From an uncultured Acidobacteriota bacterium (lineage in GTDB: Bacteria > Acidobacteriota > Thermoanaerobaculia > Multivoradales > UBA5704), in assembly GCA_963755825.1 (NCBI GenBank), contig CAVWLA010000001.1, positions 258,808 through 322,807 on the forward strand: a DNA stretch of 64,000 nucleotides, written 5' to 3'. Below the pieces are notes generated by a model that saw nothing but the letters and a program-made list of their open reading frames with translations, was not told the DNA's origin and did no database searches. Below, piece after piece: positions 2,719-53,815 of this stretch. How positions within the stretch are numbered: the stretch's first letter is position 1; every line of letters starts with the position of its first letter. Made by a program: the position numbers and the translations under genes.

Positions 2719-4365
2719 TCAGGGCGGCGCCGCCCTCCGCGCCTCGACCACCTCCGGACGTACCGGTTCGGCCCGACTGCACTGTGCAACGATCTGCGCG
2801 TAGAAGGCGCGCGCCTTGCCGGTGTCGCCAGCCAGGCCGGCGGCGCGCGCCGCGTTGTAGAGCCCGTTGAGGCGGTTGGGGGCGGCGGCGAGCGCCGTCT
2901 CGTATTCCGTCAACGCGTCGCTCGGGCGGTGCAGCTCGAGCAGGAGATCCCCCAGCAGCTCGCGCGCCGGCAGCAGCTCTCCCGGAGTGACCGGGTGCTT
3001 GCCGACCTTGTCCTGCAGATCCGCCGCCGCGCGCAGCAGCGCGAGCGCCGCGTCCGGCTTTCCCTGCGCCTGCGCCAGCCAACCCGCGGCGGAGAGGCGG
3101 AGCGATTCGACCTCTGCCGCCCAATCGTAGGGCCCCGCCGGCGGCGCCTTGACCAGTGCGTCGTGGATCGCCGCGAGCTGCGCCAGCCCGTCCTGGGCGA
3201 TCGCCAGGTCGCCGCCGCGCGCGCCGCCCAGGGAGCGTGCGAAATGGGTGGCGGCGAGCGCGTAGCCGTAGGCGTCCCAGGGTAGCCCCGCCTTGGGCGG
3301 CGCGAGCTTGGCGGCGTCCTTCCACTGGCGGCGCTCGAGAGCGTAGCGGGCCGGGACCGCGGTGAGCGCGTAGCCGGCGGCGAAGTTGGGCTCGTCGAAG
3401 GTCGTCGCCCTCGTGGTGCGCTCGAGGACCGCCCTGGCCTTGGCGTCCTCGCCCGTCTGCAGGTAGGCGTACTCGAGATAGTCGAGGGCGTGCATGGCGT
3501 CGAACGAGGTGGCGCCGGGGTGCATGGTGGCGACCAGCGCGTCGGCGGTGGCCGCGGAAGCGAGGTTCGACTGGATCGACTCCTCCCACAGACCGAGGCG
3601 GGTGAAGATGTGCGAGGGCATGTGCTGTGCGTGCGGCGACGCCGGGGCGATCTTGGCGTAGGCGCGCGCCGCCGGCAGCGCCAGACTGGCGAGCTGAGGA
3701 TAGTCGAGCGAGTGGATGAGGTAGTGGGCGATTCCCGGATGGTGAGGCTCGAGCGGCAGGAGACGATTGAGGATCTCGGCCGCCTGACGCTGCTGGCTGA
3801 AGCTGCGATCGTTCGGCGGCGCGGAGCCGAGGAGCGAGAGGGCGTAGAAGATCGATGCCTCGTGGTCGTCGGGGAACCGCTTGGCGACGTCCGCCATGGC
3901 GTCGCGGAAACCGGCGGCGCGCGAGCGGTGGTCGAGCTTGCCGGCGTCGTGGTAGAAGGCGACGATCGCACCGATGTAGGCACGCTCGCGCTCGCTGGCA
4001 CCGCCCATCGCCGCCGCCCTGTCCGCGGCCGCTCGCCCCTGGTCGAGCTCGGCCGCGGTCGGCGGCGCCCAGACCGGGTGGTAGAACGACATCGCGATGC
4101 CCCACTGTGCCATCGCGCACCCGGGGTCGCGGGCGGCGACGTCGGCGAAGGTCTGCCGCGCCAGCTCGTAGCCGAAGGAGTGGAGCAGCGCCGTGGCGCG
4201 ATCGAGCTCCGCCGCCACGGCGTCCCGGCAGGTCGTCGGGAAGCGCACCGAGCCGAGCTCGCCTTCGGCGGCCCCTGGCGCCGGGTGCTGGTGCTCCTGC
4301 GCCAGCGCTCCCGCCGGTCCCAGGATCGAGAGGAGCGCGATCGAAGTAAGCAGCGTACGATTCAT
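2719..4365 (-). CDS. Secreted tetratricopeptide-repeat (TPR) protein
   Basis: ORF 2719-4629 trimmed to internal ATG at 4363-4365 ([24 protein letters not shown] signal peptide, GGAG RBS upstream). Alpha-helical TPR-like repeats throughout. Overlapping 616 aa ORF in other frame is a GC artefact. Confidence 0.6.
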
Positions 4366-7000: not shown

Positions 7001-7282
7001 TTGGCTCCCCTCGCCGCGCCGCCGCTCGCGAGCTGCCCGGCGATCGGCATGCGGGGGATTCTATTGGAGACGGCGTGGGAGACAGCGGGCGTAACCTGCC
7101 ATATCCTGATAGCGTCTCTGTGGGCAGGCTCCGAGGGTCCGCCCCGGAACAAACCCTCGTTCTGAGCCGTTGTTTTCCACCGGATGTACCTCGGCGCGGC
7201 GCCCGCGGTCAGTTGTGGCGCTTCCCTTGCACTGTTCGATCGGGGCGGCTGTCTCGGGCCGTCCGTTTCCGGCGAGGATTCC

Positions 7283-8632
7283 ATGGGTAAAAAGGGCTGG
7301 GTGGTGATCGCGGCGATCGTCGCGGTGGTTCTCGCTGGAGGGATCTACTTCGAGCGGCACAAGACGCCGGAGCCCAGATTCCGCACCGTCAAGGTGGAGC
7401 AGGGAGACGTGGTGGCTACCGTCACCGCCTCCGGCACGCTGTCGGCGGTCACCACGGTGCAGGTGGGCAGCCAGGTCTCGGGGATCGTCGCCAAGCTCTT
7501 CGTCGACTTCAACTCCGAGGTGAAGAAGGGGCAGCTCCTGGCCGAGCTCGACCCGACGCCGTTCCAGGCGGCGGTCGACCAGCAGCAGGCGAGCGTGCAG
7601 AAGGCCAAGGTCGACCAGGTGAGCTCGCAGATCGCCTGGGGGCGGTCGAAGAAACTCCTGGCGCAGGGCCTGATCGCGCAGTCTGACTACGACACCGCCA
7701 CGGCGACGCGCGACGGCGCCGTCGCGGCGGTCAAGGTGGCTCAGGCGTCGCTCCAGCAGGCGCTCGCCAACCTCACCTATACGAAGATCCTGTCGCCGAT
7801 CGACGGCATCGTCGTCGACCGCGAGTACAACGTCGGGCAGACGGTGGCGGCCTCGTTCCAGGCGCCGACCATCTTCACCATCGCGCAGGATCTGGCGAAG
7901 ATGCAGGTGCTGACCAACATGGACGAGGCCGACATCGGCGGCATCAAGGTCGGCCAGAGCGCCAACTTCACCGTCGACGCGTTCCCCGACCAGACCTTCC
8001 GCGGCTCCGTGTCGCAGATCCGGCTGTCGCCGCAGACGGTGCAGAACGTCGTCACCTATCCCGTCGTCATCGACGTCGCCAACGTCGACTTGAAGCTCAA
8101 GCCCGGGATGACCGCCGACGTCCAGGTGCCGGTCGACGTGCGCCACGACGTGCTGCGGGTGCCGAACGCGGCGCTGCGCTTCAAGCCCGATCCCGCCGAC
8201 CTGGTGCCGGGAGCGGTGACGACGGTGACCGGCGGCGGCGGGACGGGCAAGCCGGGCGACCAGGCGGCTCAGGGCACCCAGGCGGCTCTCGGGACCGAGA
8301 GTGGCGCCGGGGGCGCGGCGTCTGGAGCCGCCGGAGCCGCCGGAGCGACCGGACATGGGGGCCGCGGCGCCGGCGGGGCGAGCCGCAGCGGCCGCACCGG
8401 CGGCGGCTCCCGCCAGGCCATCGTCTACGTCCAGGTCGAGAACGGCAAGCTCAAGCCGGTCCAGGTGCGCACCTCGATCACCGACGGCTCGTTCACCGCG
8501 GTGACCTCGAAGGATCTCAAGGTGGACGACGAGGTGGTCGTCGGCCTCGCCACGGCCAAGGCCGGCACCTCGTCGACCTCGCGGCCGCCGACCCTCGGCG
8601 GCGGCGGACCCGGCCGCGGCGGACCGCGGTAG
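7283..8632 (+). CDS. macA: Efflux ABC transporter periplasmic adaptor subunit (HlyD/MacA family)
   Basis: ORF 7184-8632 trimmed to ATG at 7283 (MGKKGWVVIAAIVAVVLAGG membrane anchor). It has coiled-coil and beta-barrel/lipoyl motifs typical of membrane fusion proteins (TKILSPIDGIVV, ADVQVPV). Gly-rich C-terminal tail. Confidence 0.85.
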   Translation: MGKKGWVVIAAIVAVVLAGGIYFERHKTPEPRFRTVKVEQGDVVATVTASGTLSAVTTVQVGSQVSGIVAKLFVDFNSEVKKGQLLAELDPTPFQAAVDQQQASVQKAKVDQVSSQIAWGRSKKLLAQGLIAQSDYDTATATRDGAVAAVKVAQASLQQALANLTYTKILSPIDGIVVDREYNVGQTVAASFQAPTIFTIAQDLAKMQVLTNMDEADIGGIKVGQSANFTVDAFPDQTFRGSVSQIRLSPQTVQNVVTYPVVIDVANVDLKLKPGMTADVQVPVDVRHDVLRVPNAALRFKPDPADLVPGAVTTVTGGGGTGKPGDQAAQGTQAALGTESGAGGAASGAAGAAGATGHGGRGAGGASRSGRTGGGSRQAIVYVQVENGKLKPVQVRTSITDGSFTAVTSKDLKVDDEVVVGLATAKAGTSSTSRPPTLGGGGPGRGGPR

Positions 8633-9429: not shown

Positions 9430-10652
9430 CCAAGTCGCAGAACATCCTCAAGGTCGCCTTCGGCGCCCTCGGGCGCAACAAGCTGCGCTCGCTGCTGACC
9501 ACCCTCGGCATCATCATCGGCGTCGCCTGCGTGGTGGCGACGATCGGCATCGGCGACGGCGCGCGCATCCAGGCGCAGGACCAGCTGCGCTCGCTGGGCA
9601 CCAACTTCCTGATGATCTTCCCCGGCGCCATCACCTCCTCCGGGGCGCGCAGCGGCTTCGGCGGCAGCTCCAAGCTCTCCGAGGACGACGTCGACGCCAT
9701 CCGCCGCGAGGTGCCCGCCGCCGCCTACGTCTCGGCCTCCAACCGCACCGTGGCGCAGGTCATCTACGGCAACCAGAACTGGTCGACGACGATCCAGGGG
9801 GCGCAGGTCGACTGGCCGCTCATCCGCTCCTGGAACATCGGCGTCGGCCAGTTCTTCTCCGACCAGGACGACCGCGCCGCGGCGAAGGTCTGCGTCCTCG
9901 GCACGACGGTCGCCGAGAACCTCTTCGGCAGCGAGGACCCGATCGGCAAGACCATCCGCATCAAGAACCTGCCGTTCCGGGTGGCGGGCGTGCTCGAGGC
10001 CAAGGGCGGCTCGACCAACGGCGCCGACCAGGACGACACCGTCATCGCGCCCTACGAGACGGTGCGCAAGAAGCTCCTCGGCACCACCGCGGTCGGCACC
10101 GTCCTGGTCTCGGCGACCTCGAACGACAAGGTCGACGAGGCGCAGAACGAGATCACCGCGCTCCTCGAGCAGCGCCATCGCATCAACCGCGCCGCCGGGC
10201 AGGAGGACGACTTCGCCATCCGCTCGCAGACGGAGATGCTGGAGCAGGCGGCGCAGCAGTCGCAGACCATGAGCTACCTGCTGTGGTCGATCGCCGGCGT
10301 CTCTCTCCTCGTCGGCGGCATCGGCATCATGAACATCATGCTGGTGTCGGTCACCGAGCGCACGCGGGAGATCGGCATCCGCATGGCGATCGGCGCCAAG
10401 GGCGGCGACATCCGCGCCCAGTTCCTCGTCGAGGCGGTGGTGCTGGCGATCTCCGGCGGCGCCATCGGCATCGGCGTCGGGATCGGCATCCAGCGCGGCG
10501 TCGCCCGCTTCGCCGGCTGGCCGGTCGCCGTGCAGGCGAGCGCCATGGGGCTCGCCTTCGCCTTCTCGGCGCTCATCGGCATCACCTTCGGTTTCTACCC
10601 GGCGCTCAAGGCGTCACAGCTCGATCCCATCGAAGCGCTGCGCTACGAGTAG
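9426..10652 (+). CDS. ABC transporter permease, FtsX/MacB-like (408 aa)
   Basis: N-terminal TM helix, MacB-like periplasmic domain, and a C-terminal FtsX domain with 3 TM helices ([12 protein letters not shown] motif). Start overlaps upstream stop (ATGA). Confidence 0.9.
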
Positions 10653-47514: not shown

Positions 47515-49392
47515 ATGACCGAGAACAACGAGACCACCGAGACGAACGATCCCAGCCAGCCGGCGCCGCCGGCGAAGGCGCTCAAGCCGGCGCCGAAGCC
47601 GGTCCTCTTCACCGTCGACGACGACCTCGAGGTGCTGCGCGCCGTCGAGCGCGACCTCCGCCGCCGTTACGGCGCCGATTACCGGGTGCTCCGCGCCAGC
47701 TCCGGCGCCTCGGCGCTCGAGGCGCTCCGCGAGCTCAAAGCGCGCGACGGCGCCCTTGCCCTCCTCCTCGTCGACCAGCGGATGCCGCAGATGAACGGCG
47801 TCGAGCTGCTCGAGCAGGCGATCCCGCTCTTCCCCGACGCCAAGCGCGTGCTCTTGACCGCCTACGCCGACACCGACGCCGCCATCCAGGCGATCAACTC
47901 GGCGCGCCTCGACTACTACCTCCTCAAGCCCTGGGACCCGCCGGAGGAGAATCTCTATCCGGCGCTGGACGACCTGCTCGCTGACTGGAAGGCGGGCTAC
48001 AGGCCGCCGTTCGAAGGGGTCCGGGTGGTGGGGCACCGGTGGTCGCCGCGATCGTTCGAGGTCCGCGACTTCCTCGCCCGCCACCAGGTGCCGTATCGGT
48101 GGCTCGACGTCGAGACCGACACGGCGGCGAAGCGGCTGGCGGAGGAGACGGTGGGGGTGGCGGCGGCGGATGCTGCGGAATCGCTCGATCCGGCCGAGGC
48201 GGTGACGGCCGTGACCGCGGCGACCGCCGCGGCCGCCGGAGTCACCCCGAAACCCTGCCTGCCGCTGGTCTTCTTTCCCGACGGCTCGCATCTGACCGAG
48301 CCGACGCGCGCCGAGCTCGCCGCCCGCCTCGGTCTGCGCACGCAGGCGGAGAAGCCGTTCTACGACCTGGTGATCGTCGGCGGCGGCCCGGCGGGGCTGG
48401 CGGCCGCGGTCTATGGCGCCTCGGAAGGGCTGCGGACGCTGATGGTCGAGGGCGACGCGCCGGGCGGGCAGGCGGGGACGAGCTCGCGGATCGAGAACTA
48501 TCTGGGCTTCCCGTCCGGTCTTTCGGGCGCCGACCTGACGCGGCGCGCGGTCGCCCAGGCGGCGCGCTTCGGGGTCGAGATCCTGTCGCCGCAGGAGGCG
48601 ACGGGCCTGAGGTTGGAGGACGCCTATCGCATCGTCACGCTGGGCGACGGCACGGCGGTGAGCTGCCACGCGCTCCTGGTGGCGACGGGGGTGTCCTATC
48701 GCAAGCTCGACATGCCGGGCGTCGAGCGGCTGACCGGCGCCGGGATCTACTACGGCGCCGCGATGACGGAGGCGATGTCCTGCCGCAACGAGGAGGTCTT
48801 CGTCGTCGGCGGCGCCAACTCGGCGGGCCAGGCGGCGATGCACCTCTCGAAGTACGCCAAGAAGGTGACCATGCTGGTGCGCGGCGCGTCGCTCGCGGCG
48901 GGGATGTCGCAGTACCTGGTCGATCAGATCTGCGGCACCCCGAACATCGAGGTGCGGTTCGGCGCCCAGGTCGCCGAAGCGCACGGCGAGGAGAGCCTGG
49001 AGGAGCTGACGATCGAGGTGCGGGAGGTCGGAAAGGAGACCTTGCCGGCGAACTCGCTGTTCATCCTGATCGGGGCGATGCCGCGGACGGGGTGGCTGGA
49101 GGGGGTGGTGGCGCGGGACGACCGGGGGTTCATCCTGTCGGGGCCGGATCTGGTGAGCGATGGAAATGGGAATGGGGCGGGTGGGGCGGGAGCGGATGGG
49201 GGGGAGGGGAAGGCCGGGCGGCGGCCTCGCGGGTGGACGCTGGACCGCGACCCTTTTTTGCTCGAGACCTCGGTGCCCGGGGTGTTCGTCGCCGGGGACG
49301 TGCGGCATGGGTCGGTCAAGCGGGTGGCCTCTGGGGTGGGGGAGGGGGCGATCGCGGTTTCGTTCGTGCACCAGTATCTGGCGCGGTTGTAG
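47515..49392 (+). CDS. Response-regulator receiver domain fused to thioredoxin-reductase-like FAD/NAD(P) flavoprotein lacking the CxxC redox disulfide
   Basis: REC domain (FTVDDDLEVLRAV...LLLVDQRMPQMNG...LLKPWD). Central thioredoxin/glutaredoxin-like fold. TrxB-like GxGxxG motifs (LVIVGGGPAGLAAAVYG and VFVVGGANSAGQAAMHL). The TrxB CATC position reads TEAM, leaving a single Cys nearby. Confidence 0.8.
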   Translation: MTENNETTETNDPSQPAPPAKALKPAPKPVLFTVDDDLEVLRAVERDLRRRYGADYRVLRASSGASALEALRELKARDGALALLLVDQRMPQMNGVELLEQAIPLFPDAKRVLLTAYADTDAAIQAINSARLDYYLLKPWDPPEENLYPALDDLLADWKAGYRPPFEGVRVVGHRWSPRSFEVRDFLARHQVPYRWLDVETDTAAKRLAEETVGVAAADAAESLDPAEAVTAVTAATAAAAGVTPKPCLPLVFFPDGSHLTEPTRAELAARLGLRTQAEKPFYDLVIVGGGPAGLAAAVYGASEGLRTLMVEGDAPGGQAGTSSRIENYLGFPSGLSGADLTRRAVAQAARFGVEILSPQEATGLRLEDAYRIVTLGDGTAVSCHALLVATGVSYRKLDMPGVERLTGAGIYYGAAMTEAMSCRNEEVFVVGGANSAGQAAMHLSKYAKKVTMLVRGASLAAGMSQYLVDQICGTPNIEVRFGAQVAEAHGEESLEELTIEVREVGKETLPANSLFILIGAMPRTGWLEGVVARDDRGFILSGPDLVSDGNGNGAGGAGADGGEGKAGRRPRGWTLDRDPFLLETSVPGVFVAGDVRHGSVKRVASGVGEGAIAVSFVHQYLARL

Positions 49393-49424
49393 AGGCTGGG
49401 CGAGCCGGCGGGTCGATTCGCGTC

Positions 49425-49740
49425 GCGCGCGATGGGGAAGGCGCGGCGGCGATGCGGTCGCGGCGGCCGCAACGGGGAAGCGGCGGCGCGAGTGGGGAAG
49501 GATCGGCTGCAATGAGGAAGGATTCGATTCTTCCTCGAAGGATTGGATTCTTCCTCGAAGCGGCCGCCGTGATGAGGAAGAATCCGGTCCTTCCTCAAAT
49601 CGGCCGTCGCAATGAGGAAGAATCCGATCCTTCCTCTCTGCAGCCGCCGCGATGGCGAAGAATCCGATCCTTCGCCATCGCGGCGGTCTCAGAGAGGAAG
49701 AGATCGATCCTTCGGCTCTCCGGCCGTCGAAATGTACTTT
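49425..49740. repeat. Tandem array of ~8 imperfect 20/40 bp hairpin repeats (consensus cggccgNcgNNatgaggaagaatccgatccttcctc)
   Basis: Units read directly: ...aatgaggaaggattcgattcttcctcgaag / gattggattcttcctcgaag / cggccgccgtgatgaggaagaatccggtccttcctcaaat / cggccgtcgcaatgaggaagaatccgatccttcctctctg / cagccgccgcgatggcgaagaatccgatccttcgccatcg / cggcggtctcagagaggaagagatcgatccttcggctctc. The stem gaggaag/cttcctc is replaced by ggcgaag/cttcgcc in one unit, a compensatory change. The array is preceded by 20 bp tggggaag units. Confidence 0.75.
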
Positions 49741-49809
49741 CTGGGCGGATCAGTGCGGGCCGCCGGCCTTCGCGAAAGACGATCTGCCGACCGTATCGTA
49801 GGTCGTGCC

Positions 49810-49832
49810 CCAGGGGGCCCTTCGCCCCCTGG
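49810..49832. terminator. Palindromic hairpin ccagggggc-ccttc-gccccctgg downstream of convergent genes
   Basis: Perfect 9 bp stem, 5 nt loop. Confidence 0.35.
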
Positions 49833-49986
49833 ACCCCCGCTCGGGCGGGCGCCGGGAGGGTTTCGCGACGGCAGTGGGTGTGCGGCACCGAAGAAGGGTG
49901 AGGCCGCCGCAGAGTCCCGTGCCACGGCTGGGTGGGGCGAGGAAGGGTGTAGCGCGAGGGCGCCGGGTTCTTGGGCGGGAGCTGTC

Positions 49987-52900
49987 CTAATCCGCCGGGT
50001 CGGAGAATTCGGCGAGGTGTTCCTCGACGAGGTCGGCGCGGTCGATGCTTTCCCAGGCAGACCTCGCCTGCGCTACGAGCTCGCGCCGCGAGGCAGGGTC
50101 TGGTGCGAGACGGGCAAGGCGGACGAGGGACCAACCGATCGAATAGGGCTCCGGGATACGGCGGTAGAGCGCGAGGGCCGCGTTGAATTGAGAGCTCGCG
50201 GCCGCGCGGTCGCCAGCCGAAAGGTCGATATCGCCGAGGCTTCTTATGCAAGTGGCCTCGCCGAGCACACCGCCGACGCGCCGGTAAAGAGGCAGAGCCT
50301 TCTGAAAGAGGTTGCGGGCGGTGTCGTGGTCGGCGTGTTCGCGAGCAATGTCGCCGAGGCTACAGAAGCAATCGGCCTCGCCGCGCGCGTCGCCGAGGCG
50401 CCGGTAGAGAGGCAGAGCCTGCTGAATAAGGTTACGGGCGGTGGCATGGTCGGAGCGGTCGAGAGCGATGTCGCCGAGGCTCTGGACACAATGGGCCTCG
50501 CCGATCATGCTGCCGATGCGCCGGTACAGAGGCAGAGCCTCCTGATAGAGGTCGCGAGCGGTGTCATGGTCGGAAAGTTGAAAAGCGATGTCGCCGAGCT
50601 TCCGGATGCAATTGGGCTCGCCGCGCCCGGTGCCGAACTGCCGGTAGAGAGGCAGAGCCTGCTGGTACAAATCGCGGGCGGTGCCGTGGTCAGAACGGTC
50701 GAGAGCGATGTCGCCGAGGCCCTGGATGCAATTGGCTTCGCCGAGCACCTTACCGACGCGCCGATAGAGAGGCAGGGCCTGCTGGTATAGGTCGCGGGCG
50801 ATGCCGTGGTCAGAACGGTAATAGGCGAGATGGGCGAACTGCGCAAGACACTCTGCTTCGATCTGTGGGTCGCCGAGCCGTGCCGCTGCCTTCAGGGTCT
50901 GTTCTTGTAGGGCCGGAGACGCTAGAAATCCGGTAAAGCTCGCGAATTTGGCCAGGGCTCTGCAAGCGGCCAGCGCCCGTTGCATGCCCTCGAGCTCGAG
51001 ACCGAGACCGAGACCGAAAATCGCCGTCGCTTCGAGGTTCCCCACCTCCGGGGCGAGACGTTCGATGGCGCCGGTGCCACCCTCGGTGCCAACCAGGTTG
51101 CCGAGCATTGCGAGCTCGAGGTAGTGGGCGACGGCGCGCTGCTGATCTTCCACCGCCGGCGGGTGACGACGCCGAACGTGCTCGCGCACGGGAGCCAGCG
51201 TGCGCAGCCTTCTATCCGAATCGAACGCCAGGCCGACTCGGCGCAGCACCGCGGCCGCCTCCTCGGCATCCTCGCTCAGAACTGCCGCGAGATCCTGGTG
51301 GGCGATGCCGTCTGGGAGTACGGCGTGGAGCGCCAGTAGGGAACGCGCTGCGGGGGTCATCCGTTTGCTGCCGATGGAGAGCTCAAGCGAGACGGCGAGG
51401 TTGGTGAGGCGCTGGTCGCCGTCGCTGGCGCGGAGCATCTCTGTGCGCTGGTCTTGCCAGCGGCGCGTGAGCCCTACGAGATCGGGCTCGGATTCGGCCT
51501 GGTAGGCGAGGAGCGTGACGGCGAGGGCGAGGCGGTCGACGGCTTCGATCAGAGGTACGAGCTGAGGATCGGAGCCGAGACGCGCTCCGGTCACGGCAAG
51601 GAAGGCGCTCCGCGCGGCCTCGGGGCTGAGCGGGCCGGCGTGAATCGCTTCGCGCCAGGGAATGCCGAAGGGCCGCTGCTCGCCGCGGATCGAGGCGGCC
51701 AGGGCCAGCCCCGAGATGCTGCAGAGATCGGCGATGAACGCCTCGGTTGCGGCCGTCTCCGCTTCCCACGGAGTTTCCAGGTTGTCCAGTACGAGCGCGA
51801 TGGGCGCCCGCTCCAGCTCAGCGAAGACTGCCGGCTCGGTGAGCGGCCCGGGCTCGACGCCGAGGGAGCGCGCGATCTCGGCGGCGAGCGCCTCGCGGCC
51901 TTTGGCGCCGTCGCAGCGGACGAAGTAGCGGCGAGGTCCGAACCGCGCGAAGGTCGGTGGGGCGTGGAGCGCTCGGAGGGTGATGGTCGACTTTCCCGCG
52001 CCGGCAGGGCCGAGGATCGGCGTCGGGGATGGCGGATCGGCGCAGAGGGAGTCGACGAGGTCGCGGATCTCGTCTTCGCGGCCGAAGCAGCGCGGGACTG
52101 TGGGGAGCCGAGGAGCACTGGGTGGGGCGCTCGGTGGCGGAGAGCTGAGTCTTCCGGCCGCCGGGCTCGCGGCGGGTACGAGCGAACGAAAGAAGGGCGC
52201 GAGGTCGCCGTAGTCAGCGCCGTAGGCGAGCGCAAAGATTCGATCCTCCCGGGGGTGCTGAGCTTGAACGCTCGCCAGCTCACTGTCGCGGCAGAGCCGG
52301 AAGTGCCGAGCCTCTCCCTCCGAGAGTACCTGGCGCGACCAGCGGAGGAGAGCCCCGAAGTTGGGATCGGCGAGGCCGTTGCCGCAGCCGATGAAGAGCA
52401 GTGTCTTCATGGTGCGCAGTGCGCGCAGCACATTCTGCGCGTGGGCATCGCCGATGACCTGCTCATAGCTGCGGATGCCCAGGACGACCGATTCCGGCTC
52501 GTCCCAGTAGCCGTGCAAGTGGAGGATCGCCGGCTCGTCGCGGAGCGCTCTCTCGATTTTGAGGCCCTGGCGCCAGGTCACCGCCGGTCTGCGCGTCACC
52601 TCTTCGAGTAGGCCGTCGTAGTTGGTTGTCGCCAGGGGGATTCCGAGATCACGCAGGGCGTCGAGCACGGAACGATCCTCGGCGCGAAGCGCTCCGACCG
52701 TCTCTTTCAGCCAGAGGCTGTACTCGGACCCGGCGGGCGCGCCGAGCTTGGCGGCGATTTTCTCTGCCGCGGAGAGAAGGTCGTCCATGTCGCCCGAACC
52801 GACGTCGGCGAGCACGCGATCTCTCCAGCCAGCGGGCAAGGATGCGCCGACGAACTGCACGCACCACTCCACGCCGACCTTAAGAAGCCCCGTCCAGGAA

Positions 52901-53013
52901 GAAGCGGGGGCGTTGCGGGTCGCGCCGACCGAGACTCCTGTCCCGACGATCGCGAGGACTCGCCCGGCGGCGACCTCCGTACGGAGATCCTGAAGTAGCA
53001 GCTCTTGAGTCAT
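49987..53013 (-). CDS. SIR2-like domain / STAND (NB-ARC-like) NTPase / TPR-repeat protein, antiviral STAND (Avs5-like, SIR2-STAND) candidate defense protein
   Basis: 1008 aa. The N-terminal ~270 aa SIR2_2/DUF4020-type domain has LAIVGTGVSV, TTNYDGLLE and LHLHGYW. The central P-loop NTPase has Walker A ILGPAGAGKSTI, Walker B LVLDNLE and a helical winged-helix region. The C-terminal ~350 aa hold at least 7 near-identical TPR units (RSDHGIARDLYQQALPLYRRVGKVLGEANCIQGLGDIALD). GC is lower than neighbouring genes. Confidence 0.8.
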   Translation of the reverse strand: MTQELLLQDLRTEVAAGRVLAIVGTGVSVGATRNAPASSWTGLLKVGVEWCVQFVGASLPAGWRDRVLADVGSGDMDDLLSAAEKIAAKLGAPAGSEYSLWLKETVGALRAEDRSVLDALRDLGIPLATTNYDGLLEEVTRRPAVTWRQGLKIERALRDEPAILHLHGYWDEPESVVLGIRSYEQVIGDAHAQNVLRALRTMKTLLFIGCGNGLADPNFGALLRWSRQVLSEGEARHFRLCRDSELASVQAQHPREDRIFALAYGADYGDLAPFFRSLVPAASPAAGRLSSPPPSAPPSAPRLPTVPRCFGREDEIRDLVDSLCADPPSPTPILGPAGAGKSTITLRALHAPPTFARFGPRRYFVRCDGAKGREALAAEIARSLGVEPGPLTEPAVFAELERAPIALVLDNLETPWEAETAATEAFIADLCSISGLALAASIRGEQRPFGIPWREAIHAGPLSPEAARSAFLAVTGARLGSDPQLVPLIEAVDRLALAVTLLAYQAESEPDLVGLTRRWQDQRTEMLRASDGDQRLTNLAVSLELSIGSKRMTPAARSLLALHAVLPDGIAHQDLAAVLSEDAEEAAAVLRRVGLAFDSDRRLRTLAPVREHVRRRHPPAVEDQQRAVAHYLELAMLGNLVGTEGGTGAIERLAPEVGNLEATAIFGLGLGLELEGMQRALAACRALAKFASFTGFLASPALQEQTLKAAARLGDPQIEAECLAQFAHLAYYRSDHGIARDLYQQALPLYRRVGKVLGEANCIQGLGDIALDRSDHGTARDLYQQALPLYRQFGTGRGEPNCIRKLGDIAFQLSDHDTARDLYQEALPLYRRIGSMIGEAHCVQSLGDIALDRSDHATARNLIQQALPLYRRLGDARGEADCFCSLGDIAREHADHDTARNLFQKALPLYRRVGGVLGEATCIRSLGDIDLSAGDRAAASSQFNAALALYRRIPEPYSIGWSLVRLARLAPDPASRRELVAQARSAWESIDRADLVEEHLAEFSDPAD
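50232..51090. repeat. ~120 bp tandem DNA repeats (x7) encoding the TPR sensor units of the STAND protein
   Basis: Plus-strand units ccggtagagaggcagagcctgctg...gatgtcgccgaggc... recur every ~120 bp at about 80% identity. Confidence 0.7.
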
Positions 53014-53167
53014 TCCGTTTTGCCTGCGTGAATGCTATCTCAGACGGCGAGGCGCCACGTGGGTGCGGAGCGAGAGCTGCGAACAGGCGGCGCGGCAGAG
53101 AGGCTGGCAAATTCTTTCGGGGGCGCCAAAGGCTTGCGGCGGTCTCGTCCCGCGAAGTGATTCAAAT

Positions 53168-53278
53168 CGTCATCCTGAGCGGAGCGAAGGATCTGGGCGG
53201 GGGGAGCTCTAAGCACAAGACGGTCAATGACTTGGAGCGCTCCCTTCCCCCGGATCCTTCGCTTCGCTCAGGATGACG
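53168..53278. repeat. Long hairpin (26 bp arms cgtcatcctgagcggagcgaaggatc / gatccttcgcttcgctcaggatgacg, ~59 nt loop with inner pairing)
   Basis: Arms at 53168-53193 and 53253-53278 are reverse complements with 1 mismatch. A third copy of the right arm lies at 53722-53746. Confidence 0.7.
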
Positions 53279-53395
53279 TACGAAGTTTCCGTGAGCCATC
53301 GCGGCGAAGTATTTGGCGGAGCCAGCAAGAATTTGCAGGCTCTGAGGACGAGGCCGATCGCCAGAATCGGGGATGAGTCGCGGCCCGCGTCCCAG

Positions 53396-53675
53396 CACGG
53401 GCATGAATGCCCGTGCTATGAGGGGCGCCGGATAAATCCGGCTTCGCGCAGTCCGTGGGCTCGTCTCGATGCCGCGGACGAGAGGTAGCGATGAGCCACA
53501 ATCTGGACGGATTGCGGACAACGCGCCCTCCTCAACATCGCCGGCGTCCTCTGCGGCTCCGGATCGGCTGAGGCGATCGAAATCCGTCTGCCGACCGCCA
53601 ACGCGCTGACCGTCCCAGTGCGCGAAGCCGGATTCATCCGGCGCCCCTCAATAGCACGGGCATTCATGCCCGTGC
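53396..53675. mobile_element. MITE-like element: ~58 bp terminal inverted repeats flanking ~165 bp, itself flanked by 25 bp direct repeats (53253-53278 and 53722-53746)
   Basis: Left TIR gcacgggcatgaatgcccgtgctatgaggggcgccggataaatccggcttcgcgcag (53396-53452). Right TIR cagtgcgcgaagccggattcatccggcgcccctcaatagcacgggcattcatgcccgtgc (53616-53675). The right TIR is the reverse complement of the left with about 4 mismatches, and each TIR contains two internal hairpins. No transposase ORF is present inside. Confidence 0.45.
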
Positions 53676-53815
53676 GGGGGTCCGGTGGCCTCGACTCGAG
53701 CCCGCGAATGCGGCGTGGCCAGATCCTTCGCTTCGCTCAGGATGACACTGCGCGGGAGCGTCAAGGAACCATGGCGCCGAAGAAATTGGCAGCGCCGCAC
53801 GAAACTCGCAAGCGC

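Follow-up and report, generated by a model that had tools for sequence, protein, structure and literature searches.

A tandem array of 20-nt modules with BIME-like architecture in accessory DNA of an uncultured soil Acidobacteriota bacterium

The DNA analysed here, a 64-kb stretch from an uncultured soil Acidobacteriota bacterium (a Thermoanaerobaculia-like MAG) that we refer to as the window, carries an array of short repeats at positions 49429–49728 (300 bases), between two convergent genes (Table 1). On one side lies a flavoprotein gene that is conserved in relatives and whose stop codon is 33 nt before the array start. On the other side, ~250 nt separate the array end and the stop codon of a SIR2-STAND gene, the SIR2 domain of which matches defence SIR2 models (ThsA, Dsr1). 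A 120-nt tandem repeat inside this second gene, at 50226–50819 (4.9 copies, 78% match), corresponds to 40-residue TPR units. We found no U-tract terminator in the array hairpins or their flanks, and no GC-skew switch, as a signal of an origin or terminus.

Table 1. Positions of the genes, array units, and neighbouring elements in the 64-kb window.
Feature	Position	Strand	Description and basis
Receiver domain (response-regulator) and thioredoxin-reductase-like flavoprotein gene	47515–49392	+	Pfam; homologues in Thermoanaerobaculia/Acidobacteriota MAGs
Accessory segment, 4.4 kb	49393–53815		Array, STAND gene, and further palindromic elements; tblastx synteny, junctions, gene tables, composition
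Left array part	49429–49508	+	Four head-to-tail 20-nt modules of the GCGAT-GGGGAAG-GCGCGGCG type; 20-nt register listing, Tandem Repeats Finder period 20
Unit U2	49509–49556		Hairpin GAGGAAGGATTCGATTCTTCCTC at 49514–49536; Tandem Repeats Finder 49517–49560, repeat spacing, loop asymmetry
Unit U3	49569–49608		40-nt palindromic unit, hairpin GAGGAAGAATCCGGTCCTTCCTC (49574–49596), GC-rich linker
Unit U4	49609–49648		Canonical hairpin GAGGAAGAATCCGATCCTTCCTC (49614–49636), linker TCTGCAGCCGCC
Unit U5, 'compensatory'	49643–49685		Perfect 17-bp stem CCGCCGCGATGGCGAAG / CTTCGCCATCGCGGCGG, loop AATCCGATC
Unit U6, degenerate, last	49689–49728		GAGGAAGAGATCGATCCTTCGGCTC; right arm ATCCTTCGGCTCTCCGGCCG
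GC-rich perfect 9-bp hairpin	49811–49833		CCAGGGGGC-CCTTC-GCCCCCTGG; between array and STAND stop codon; no T-run
SIR2-NTPase(STAND)-TPR gene, converging	49987–52815	-	Product P0121, 942 aa, GTG start; longest ORF to 53013

The array consists of ~15 copies of one 20-nt module, placed in both orientations and in strict 20-nt register. The module has the core GAGGAAGRATC, or more generally G(A/G)GGAAGRATC, and a short GC-rich tail; laid out in the 20-nt register, a 5-nt tail (GCRAT or CAGAG) is followed by the core G(A/G)GGAAG and then by RATCCGAT. From left to right, 4–5 head-to-tail modules with no local hairpin are followed by ~4.5 alternating pairs, each of which makes up a 40-nt hairpin unit. 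Tandem Repeats Finder reported a period of 20 at 49427–49521 (4.8 copies) and at 49517–49560 (2.2 copies, 95% match) and a period of 40 at 49546–49673 and 49574–49729, which overlap, and a separate repeat search found copies at the same spacing of 20, 40, 40, and 40 nt. With up to three mismatches allowed, the 23-mer GAGGAAGAATCCGATCCTTCCTC is confined to the array within the 64 kb (0 matches expected from shuffles). The original prediction described about eight 20–40 bp units repeated head-to-tail, each with its own inverted repeat. The array is real and more extensive than that, but its fundamental period is 20 nt, with ~15 modules in two orientations, and the inverted repeat is present in the right two thirds (49509–49728) and missing from the left third (49429–49508), where there is no local hairpin.

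Each 40-nt unit comprises a 7-bp stem, a 9-nt loop, and a 17-nt GC-rich linker that is palindromic too. The GC-rich segments between hairpins (GCGGCCGCCGTGAT, TCGGCCGTCGCAAT, and GCAGCCGCCGCGAT) are conserved between units, just as had been claimed, and the units are mutually 60–78% identical. Their two arms differ systematically (GAGGAAGAATC versus GAGGAAGGATC), which gives a constant A•C or G•T position beside the stem. The folding energy of the region is far beyond that of shuffled sequences on both strands (z of about −9.4 and −9.3), by ~9 standard deviations on either strand. The minus-strand hairpins of U3–U6 are predicted to be 2–4 kcal/mol more stable than the plus-strand ones, via G•U pairs.

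The regularity of the array is broken at several places. The modules of the left part (GGGGAAGG) are GC-enriched and degenerate or decayed, the second being hardly recognisable. Judged from its loop asymmetry, the hairpin of U2 is flipped in orientation relative to U3–U6. After the U2 hairpin, a near-exact 20-nt duplication (49517–49536 and 49537–49556; 1 mismatch, 95% match) interrupts the 40-nt rhythm, indicating that the array changes step-wise by 20-nt slippage. From 49489 onward, nearly every canonical module contains GATC and/or GANTC (GAATC/GATTC), and this part of the array is thus a dense, regular cluster of potential adenine-methylation sites.

When we scanned one genome per species (185,579 species, 596 Gb) with a degenerate 23-nt pattern, five matches were returned, of which four were chance hairpins and one belonged to a related array. 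This homologous array is carried by the 2.35-Mb contig of another uncultured Acidobacteriota MAG (L002), at a locus that is unrelated to the one in the window and is flanked by an 86-aa ORF and lepA, the array being upstream of lepA. It contains 4 alternating ~41-nt units, with the central hairpin GAGGAAGGATCCAATCCTTCCTC, and then 8 head-to-tail 20-nt modules (ATCCTTCCGCTCTACGAGCG) at 7120–7279. An 18-nt core is common to the modules of both genomes (CTGCAGAGAGGAAGGATCGG in the window versus TTGTAGAGAGGAAGGATTGG in L002), and their tails differ; the right arm of U6, ATCCTTCGGCTCTCCGGCCG, and the L002 module ATCCTTCCGCTCTACGAGCG are 75% identical over 20 nt. Both arrays have the same polarity, in that direct modules come first and alternating ones after, counted from the upstream co-directional gene. 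In the L002 modules, a short stem-loop has on its 5′ side a GTAG/GTAC tag that the window modules lack. The presence of a homologous array at an unrelated locus of another genome argues for a family and not a local accident; with two arrays known, its dispersal is weakly documented.

The 86-aa ORF beside the L002 array (7403–7663, minus strand) gave weak winged-helix matches and no significant family or structure match, and no homologue of it was found in the window. Upstream of this ORF, at 7775–8000, where the locus ends, lies a second, unrelated array with a 21/42-nt period (TGAATyC...GACCAG), and the ORF is bracketed by it and by the GGAAGGATC array.

A search for dispersed copies had been suggested as the check for a REP family. 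This check was negative in all DNA sampled, namely the 64-kb window and ~92 kb of other Acidobacteriota-type DNA, where we found neither a solitary module nor a solitary hairpin beyond the arrays. A position weight matrix built from 29 modules gave zero matches at a 14-bit threshold (0.7 from shuffles). A covariance model for the hairpin unit, run on the window and the ~92 kb, detected weak generic GC hairpins and nothing more. A typical abundant REP family would have yielded several matches in the DNA sampled. For the window and L002, Rfam 15 returned nothing at the gathering score, with sub-threshold microRNA-type hairpin noise only, and blastn against 72,556 plasmids and 50,697 phages gave no match. 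Translated-array searches of 5.8 billion and 1.84 billion proteins, aimed at spurious ORFs that might cover sister arrays, were likewise without a match. Among the at least 120 matches listed in a metagenome scan, we saw chance single hairpins, mostly on low-GC contigs, and no related array; viral scans yielded no related arrays, and no literature match to the array sequence was found.

Three viral contigs have 3–4 direct GGAAGRATC motifs at 21-nt spacing (L146, 1294–1365; L142, 9558–9607; L147, 1266–1315). These viral motifs lie upstream of ORFs and look iteron- or operator-like, those of L146 being just upstream of an ATG at ~1383.

The locus was compared with orthologous junctions in relatives. 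The flavoprotein and alcohol dehydrogenase (ADH) genes converge, 16 bp apart, in L009 (9653–9669) and L010 (4001–4017), and other cargo occupies the same junction in L006 (11780–15580) and L008 (3575–4860); with the window included, cargo sizes are 1.3–4.4 kb. The 16-bp junction in two relatives, the different cargo in two others, and the 4.4 kb found here together indicate an insertion hot spot, with the array as part of the accessory DNA there. Besides the array and the SIR2-STAND gene, the inserted segment comprises 0.8 kb rich in repeats, and its G+C fraction is 0.67–0.69 versus 0.72–0.74. None of the orthologous junctions in relatives contains the array. Identity to the nearest STAND homologues does not exceed 58%, and no array was found in the 3′ flanks of three of them (56–58% identity). 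The array does lie between convergent genes and next to the STAND gene, as originally described, but the association between the two did not survive this comparison: a functional tie to the SIR2-STAND gene is not supported, no link having been found, and a tempting connection between the array and a defence gene is thereby removed.

Other palindromic elements occur farther along the accessory segment. An inverted repeat with 43-nt arms built on GTCATCCTGAGCGRAGCGAAGGATC is located at 53168–53278, and a third copy lies 470 nt downstream, at 53719–53746. A related copy, GTCATTCTGAGCGCAGCGAAGAATC, is found at a different locus in a related genome (L006, 8050–8074), so the GTCATCCTGAGCGRAGCGAAGGATC elements seem to form a palindromic family with dispersed members. 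Upstream of the SIR2-STAND gene, a 289-bp MITE-like element (53391–53679) has ~60-nt terminal inverted repeats (including CACGGGCATGAATGCCCGTG) that are 97% complementary. The GTCATCCTGAGCGRAGCGAAGGATC palindrome and one array unit have the end GCGAAGGATC in common, which could be chance. We rejected a link between the array and this palindrome family (53168–53746) as speculation, given that the 10-mer in common is at about chance level (~0.4 expected).

One unit had been singled out in the original prediction for a double change, GGCGAAG...CTTCGCC, that preserves base pairing. We found this variant at 49654–49676, and covariation proved to be broader: in an alignment of five window units and the central L002 hairpin, 10/20 stem pairs change on both sides, a value reached by 1/500 shuffles, with all slid controls much lower. 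These changes indicate that palindromy is maintained, and more widely than had been recognised. The unit in question, U5, is a perfect 17-bp palindrome, and its matched pairs therefore number more than two. Its DNA fold is −25.2 kcal/mol (z = −7.3), and it is 93% self-complementary over 41 nt versus 72–75% identity to neighbouring units.

From the double change, selection on the hairpin structure had been claimed. This argument fails because the two arms are oppositely oriented copies of one module, so that a single copying event suffices and the double change is no proof of hairpin selection. A single template switch or inverted duplication can create matched compensatory stem changes in one step (PMC8794818), and a contiguous perfect palindrome within a diverged array is what one such event predicts. 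In both the window and L002, moreover, the module is kept in direct runs with no local hairpin, and thus the hairpin may not be the selected feature. The matched double changes are explained most economically by local DNA copying rather than by pair-by-pair selection. The array offers a clean case in which stem covariation is explicable by local DNA copying without structural selection, and it calls for caution in covariation-based RNA discovery within repeat arrays.

With about even confidence, we interpret the array as a lineage-restricted, BIME-like palindromic cluster in accessory DNA, which would have been shaped by slippage and arm-to-arm copying and would affect transcript ends in both directions. 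Alternating forward and reverse copies of the module give rise to the 40-nt units, juxtaposed arms to the hairpins, and head-to-tail copies to the left third. Growth would have proceeded in steps of 20 nt and 40 nt, through replication slippage or unequal exchange, and palindromy would have been kept via arm-to-arm copying, either by intrastrand template switching or by inverted duplication. The DNA that carries it, at an insertion hot spot, would have been acquired horizontally. Owing to its symmetry, the array would equip the two converging transcripts with stable stem-loops at their 3′ ends. Reasoning from REP/BIME elements, we would expect it to act most likely as a two-way barrier, through 3′-end protection, transcription attenuation, or insulation of the convergent genes.

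The original assignment to a REP/BIME type agrees with the architecture of the array, in which 23-nt hairpins sit in 40-nt palindromic repeats, modules alternate, linkers are conserved, and the arrangement is tandem and extragenic. It does not agree with the foot of the palindromes, since the window modules are preceded by RATG or AGAG and not by a GTAG/CGTC tag. Dispersed copies were not found in the 64-kb window or the ~92 kb of other Acidobacteriota-type DNA, and membership among the classical REPs is not established. Tandemly reiterated REP dimers, copy-number variation from locus to locus, and families restricted to few loci are documented for REP/BIME sequences (PMC3333891, PMC3733652), and differing REP types that retain complementarity are documented in E. 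coli (PMC3333891). Like E. coli BIME-2 and atypical BIMEs, the array combines alternating short imperfect palindromes with short conserved linkers in an extragenic tandem at gene 3′ ends, its copy number differs by locus, and its variants keep complementarity (PMC3333891). Two slightly different arm types are a further likeness to the E. coli BIMEs; here these are an A-type and a G-type, with the constant mismatch beside the stem. Unlike those elements, the array has a 20-nt module, which is the lower bound for REPs, lacks GTAG in the window, and has no dispersed singletons in the sampled DNA; nor did a RAYT gene turn up among the window genes scanned. Its head-to-tail runs of 4–8 modules also depart from REPs, for which such an arrangement is reported to be rare (PMC3733652).

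Large blocks at few loci of a GC-rich genome, and not a genome-wide spread, are the main arrangement of the GTAG-23 REPs of Thermomicrobium roseum and are known from other clustered REP families (Di Nocera et al., 2013), an arrangement that the array may share. The L002 modules (GTAG-AGCG-GAAGGAT-CGCT) resemble GTAG-type REPs in having the GTAG tag 5′ of a short stem-loop. The Thermomicrobium roseum REPs, however, come from another phylum and have another sequence, and the window array is without GTAG. Neisseria dRS3 mosaics and pneumococcal BOX elements are assembled from short modules with inverted repeats, the middle one being reiterated in tandem, and stable structures are predicted for them. 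The array is similar to these intergenic inverted-repeat mosaics in the reiteration of its modules and in its stable predicted folds (PMC3733652). It differs from them in that dRS3 and BOX copies are dispersed and number in the hundreds in a genome, their modules are longer or of another kind, and the sequences show no similarity. The array documents a family of short palindromic repeats that had not been described before in Acidobacteriota (Thermoanaerobaculia-like), a phylum whose repeat elements are almost unstudied.

A rather unlikely alternative is that the array works at the DNA level, as an iteron-, operator-, or centromere-like platform of an integrated mobile or plasmid-like element, on which a protein would recognise GGAAGRATC every 20 bp (~two helical turns) in direct and inverted copies. 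The module core is the part conserved between the genomes, whereas the tails differ; this core is kept in runs without local hairpin potential (window 49429–49508 and L002 7120–7279), the phasing is exactly 20 nt, and both arrays lie in or beside apparent accessory DNA. The small winged-helix-like ORF of L002, flanked by the homologous array on one side and by the 21/42-nt array on the other, provides a hint of centromere- or iteron-like protein binding, although its product has no significant family or structure match. The GGAAGRATC motifs at 21-nt spacing upstream of viral ORFs are consistent with the same idea but may be unrelated chance families. Among plasmid centromeres, pSK41 parC is composed of four 20-bp tandem repeats, and F sopC is composed of twelve 43-bp repeats, each with an inverted repeat. 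Like plasmid centromeres and iterons, the array is non-coding and has a 20-bp or ~40-bp period with direct and internal inverted repeats. Unlike them, it is in a chromosomal context and is matched by none of the plasmids or phages searched. Its neighbours are the flavoprotein and SIR2-STAND genes, and no candidate binding-protein, replication, or partition gene adjoins the window array. We also regard it as unlikely that the array is a functional platform of an uncharacterised Acidobacteriota mobile element and not a selfish repeat, whether by binding a GGAAGRATC-specific protein every 20 bp in a centromere- or iteron-like manner or by encoding a GGA-rich sponge RNA. A protein-binding or sponge role, if true, would raise the importance of the array, and nothing here requires such a role.

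It seems quite improbable that the array represents the end, or a remnant, of a mobile element by which the SIR2-STAND gene was brought in, with the left border formed by multiple transposase or recombinase sites or by a MITE-like derivative. The array does start 33 nt into the left edge of the 4.4-kb insertion, nested inverted-repeat elements follow past the STAND gene (53168–53278, 53391–53679, and 53719–53746), and its runs of direct and inverted modules resemble fused multi-site transposon ends. Within the 4.4-kb insertion, however, there is no transposase or integrase, and no matching module is present at the right border. Nor was a target-site or att-like duplication found, a candidate duplication of the ADH 3′ end at the left border having been rejected with an alignment score equal to the random mean. 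STAND homologues elsewhere occur without the array, and other genes surround the array in L002.

We consider it very improbable that the array encodes a repetitive structured non-coding RNA, be it a CsrB/RsmZ-like GGA sponge or a 3′ UTR selected at the RNA level. Up to ~16 GGAAGGA/GGGGAAGG motifs are present, the GGA tracts are unpaired in predicted folds and lie in loops in some of them, and for each L002 direct module a GAAGGAU loop closed by a 5-bp stem (GAGCG/CGCUC) is possible. The shared polarity of the two arrays relative to the upstream co-directional gene and the G•U pairs that stabilise the minus-strand hairpins of U3–U6 point in the same direction. Against an RNA product, however, the two strands are equally structured because of the symmetry, the fold of the direct-module part is not better than that of shuffled sequences (z = −1.8), and no promoter-like or terminator-like site was found at the array. 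The array has no Rfam family at the gathering score, is absent from the orthologous locus in relatives, and is accompanied by no convincing csrA-like gene in the sampled DNA.

A one-off product of local slippage, an assembly artefact, a coding repeat, or a CRISPR array is scarcely credible and was excluded: the array does occupy a single locus in the window, on a long (2.88 Mb) metagenome-assembly contig, but a homologous array exists at another locus of an independent genome, and identities of 60–78% between units are those of neither a recent slip nor an assembly or polishing artefact. A coding repeat was rejected because the period of 40 nt is not divisible by 3 and neither protein collection contained a match. 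CRISPR arrays have identical 23–47 nt direct repeats and unique spacers of similar or greater length. The original prediction was correct that this array is not one of them, as its 17-nt 'spacers' are conserved and palindromic, its repeats are only 60–78% identical, and its modules run in both directions.

Four unrelated high-GC metagenome contigs (L065, ~9907–9952; L068, ~2178–2222; L097, ~1713–1758; L131, ~3692–3735) have one long single hairpin in common (...ATTCTTCCTC-CGYGTCCCTCT), which may belong to a dispersed hairpin or terminator family of soil bacteria.
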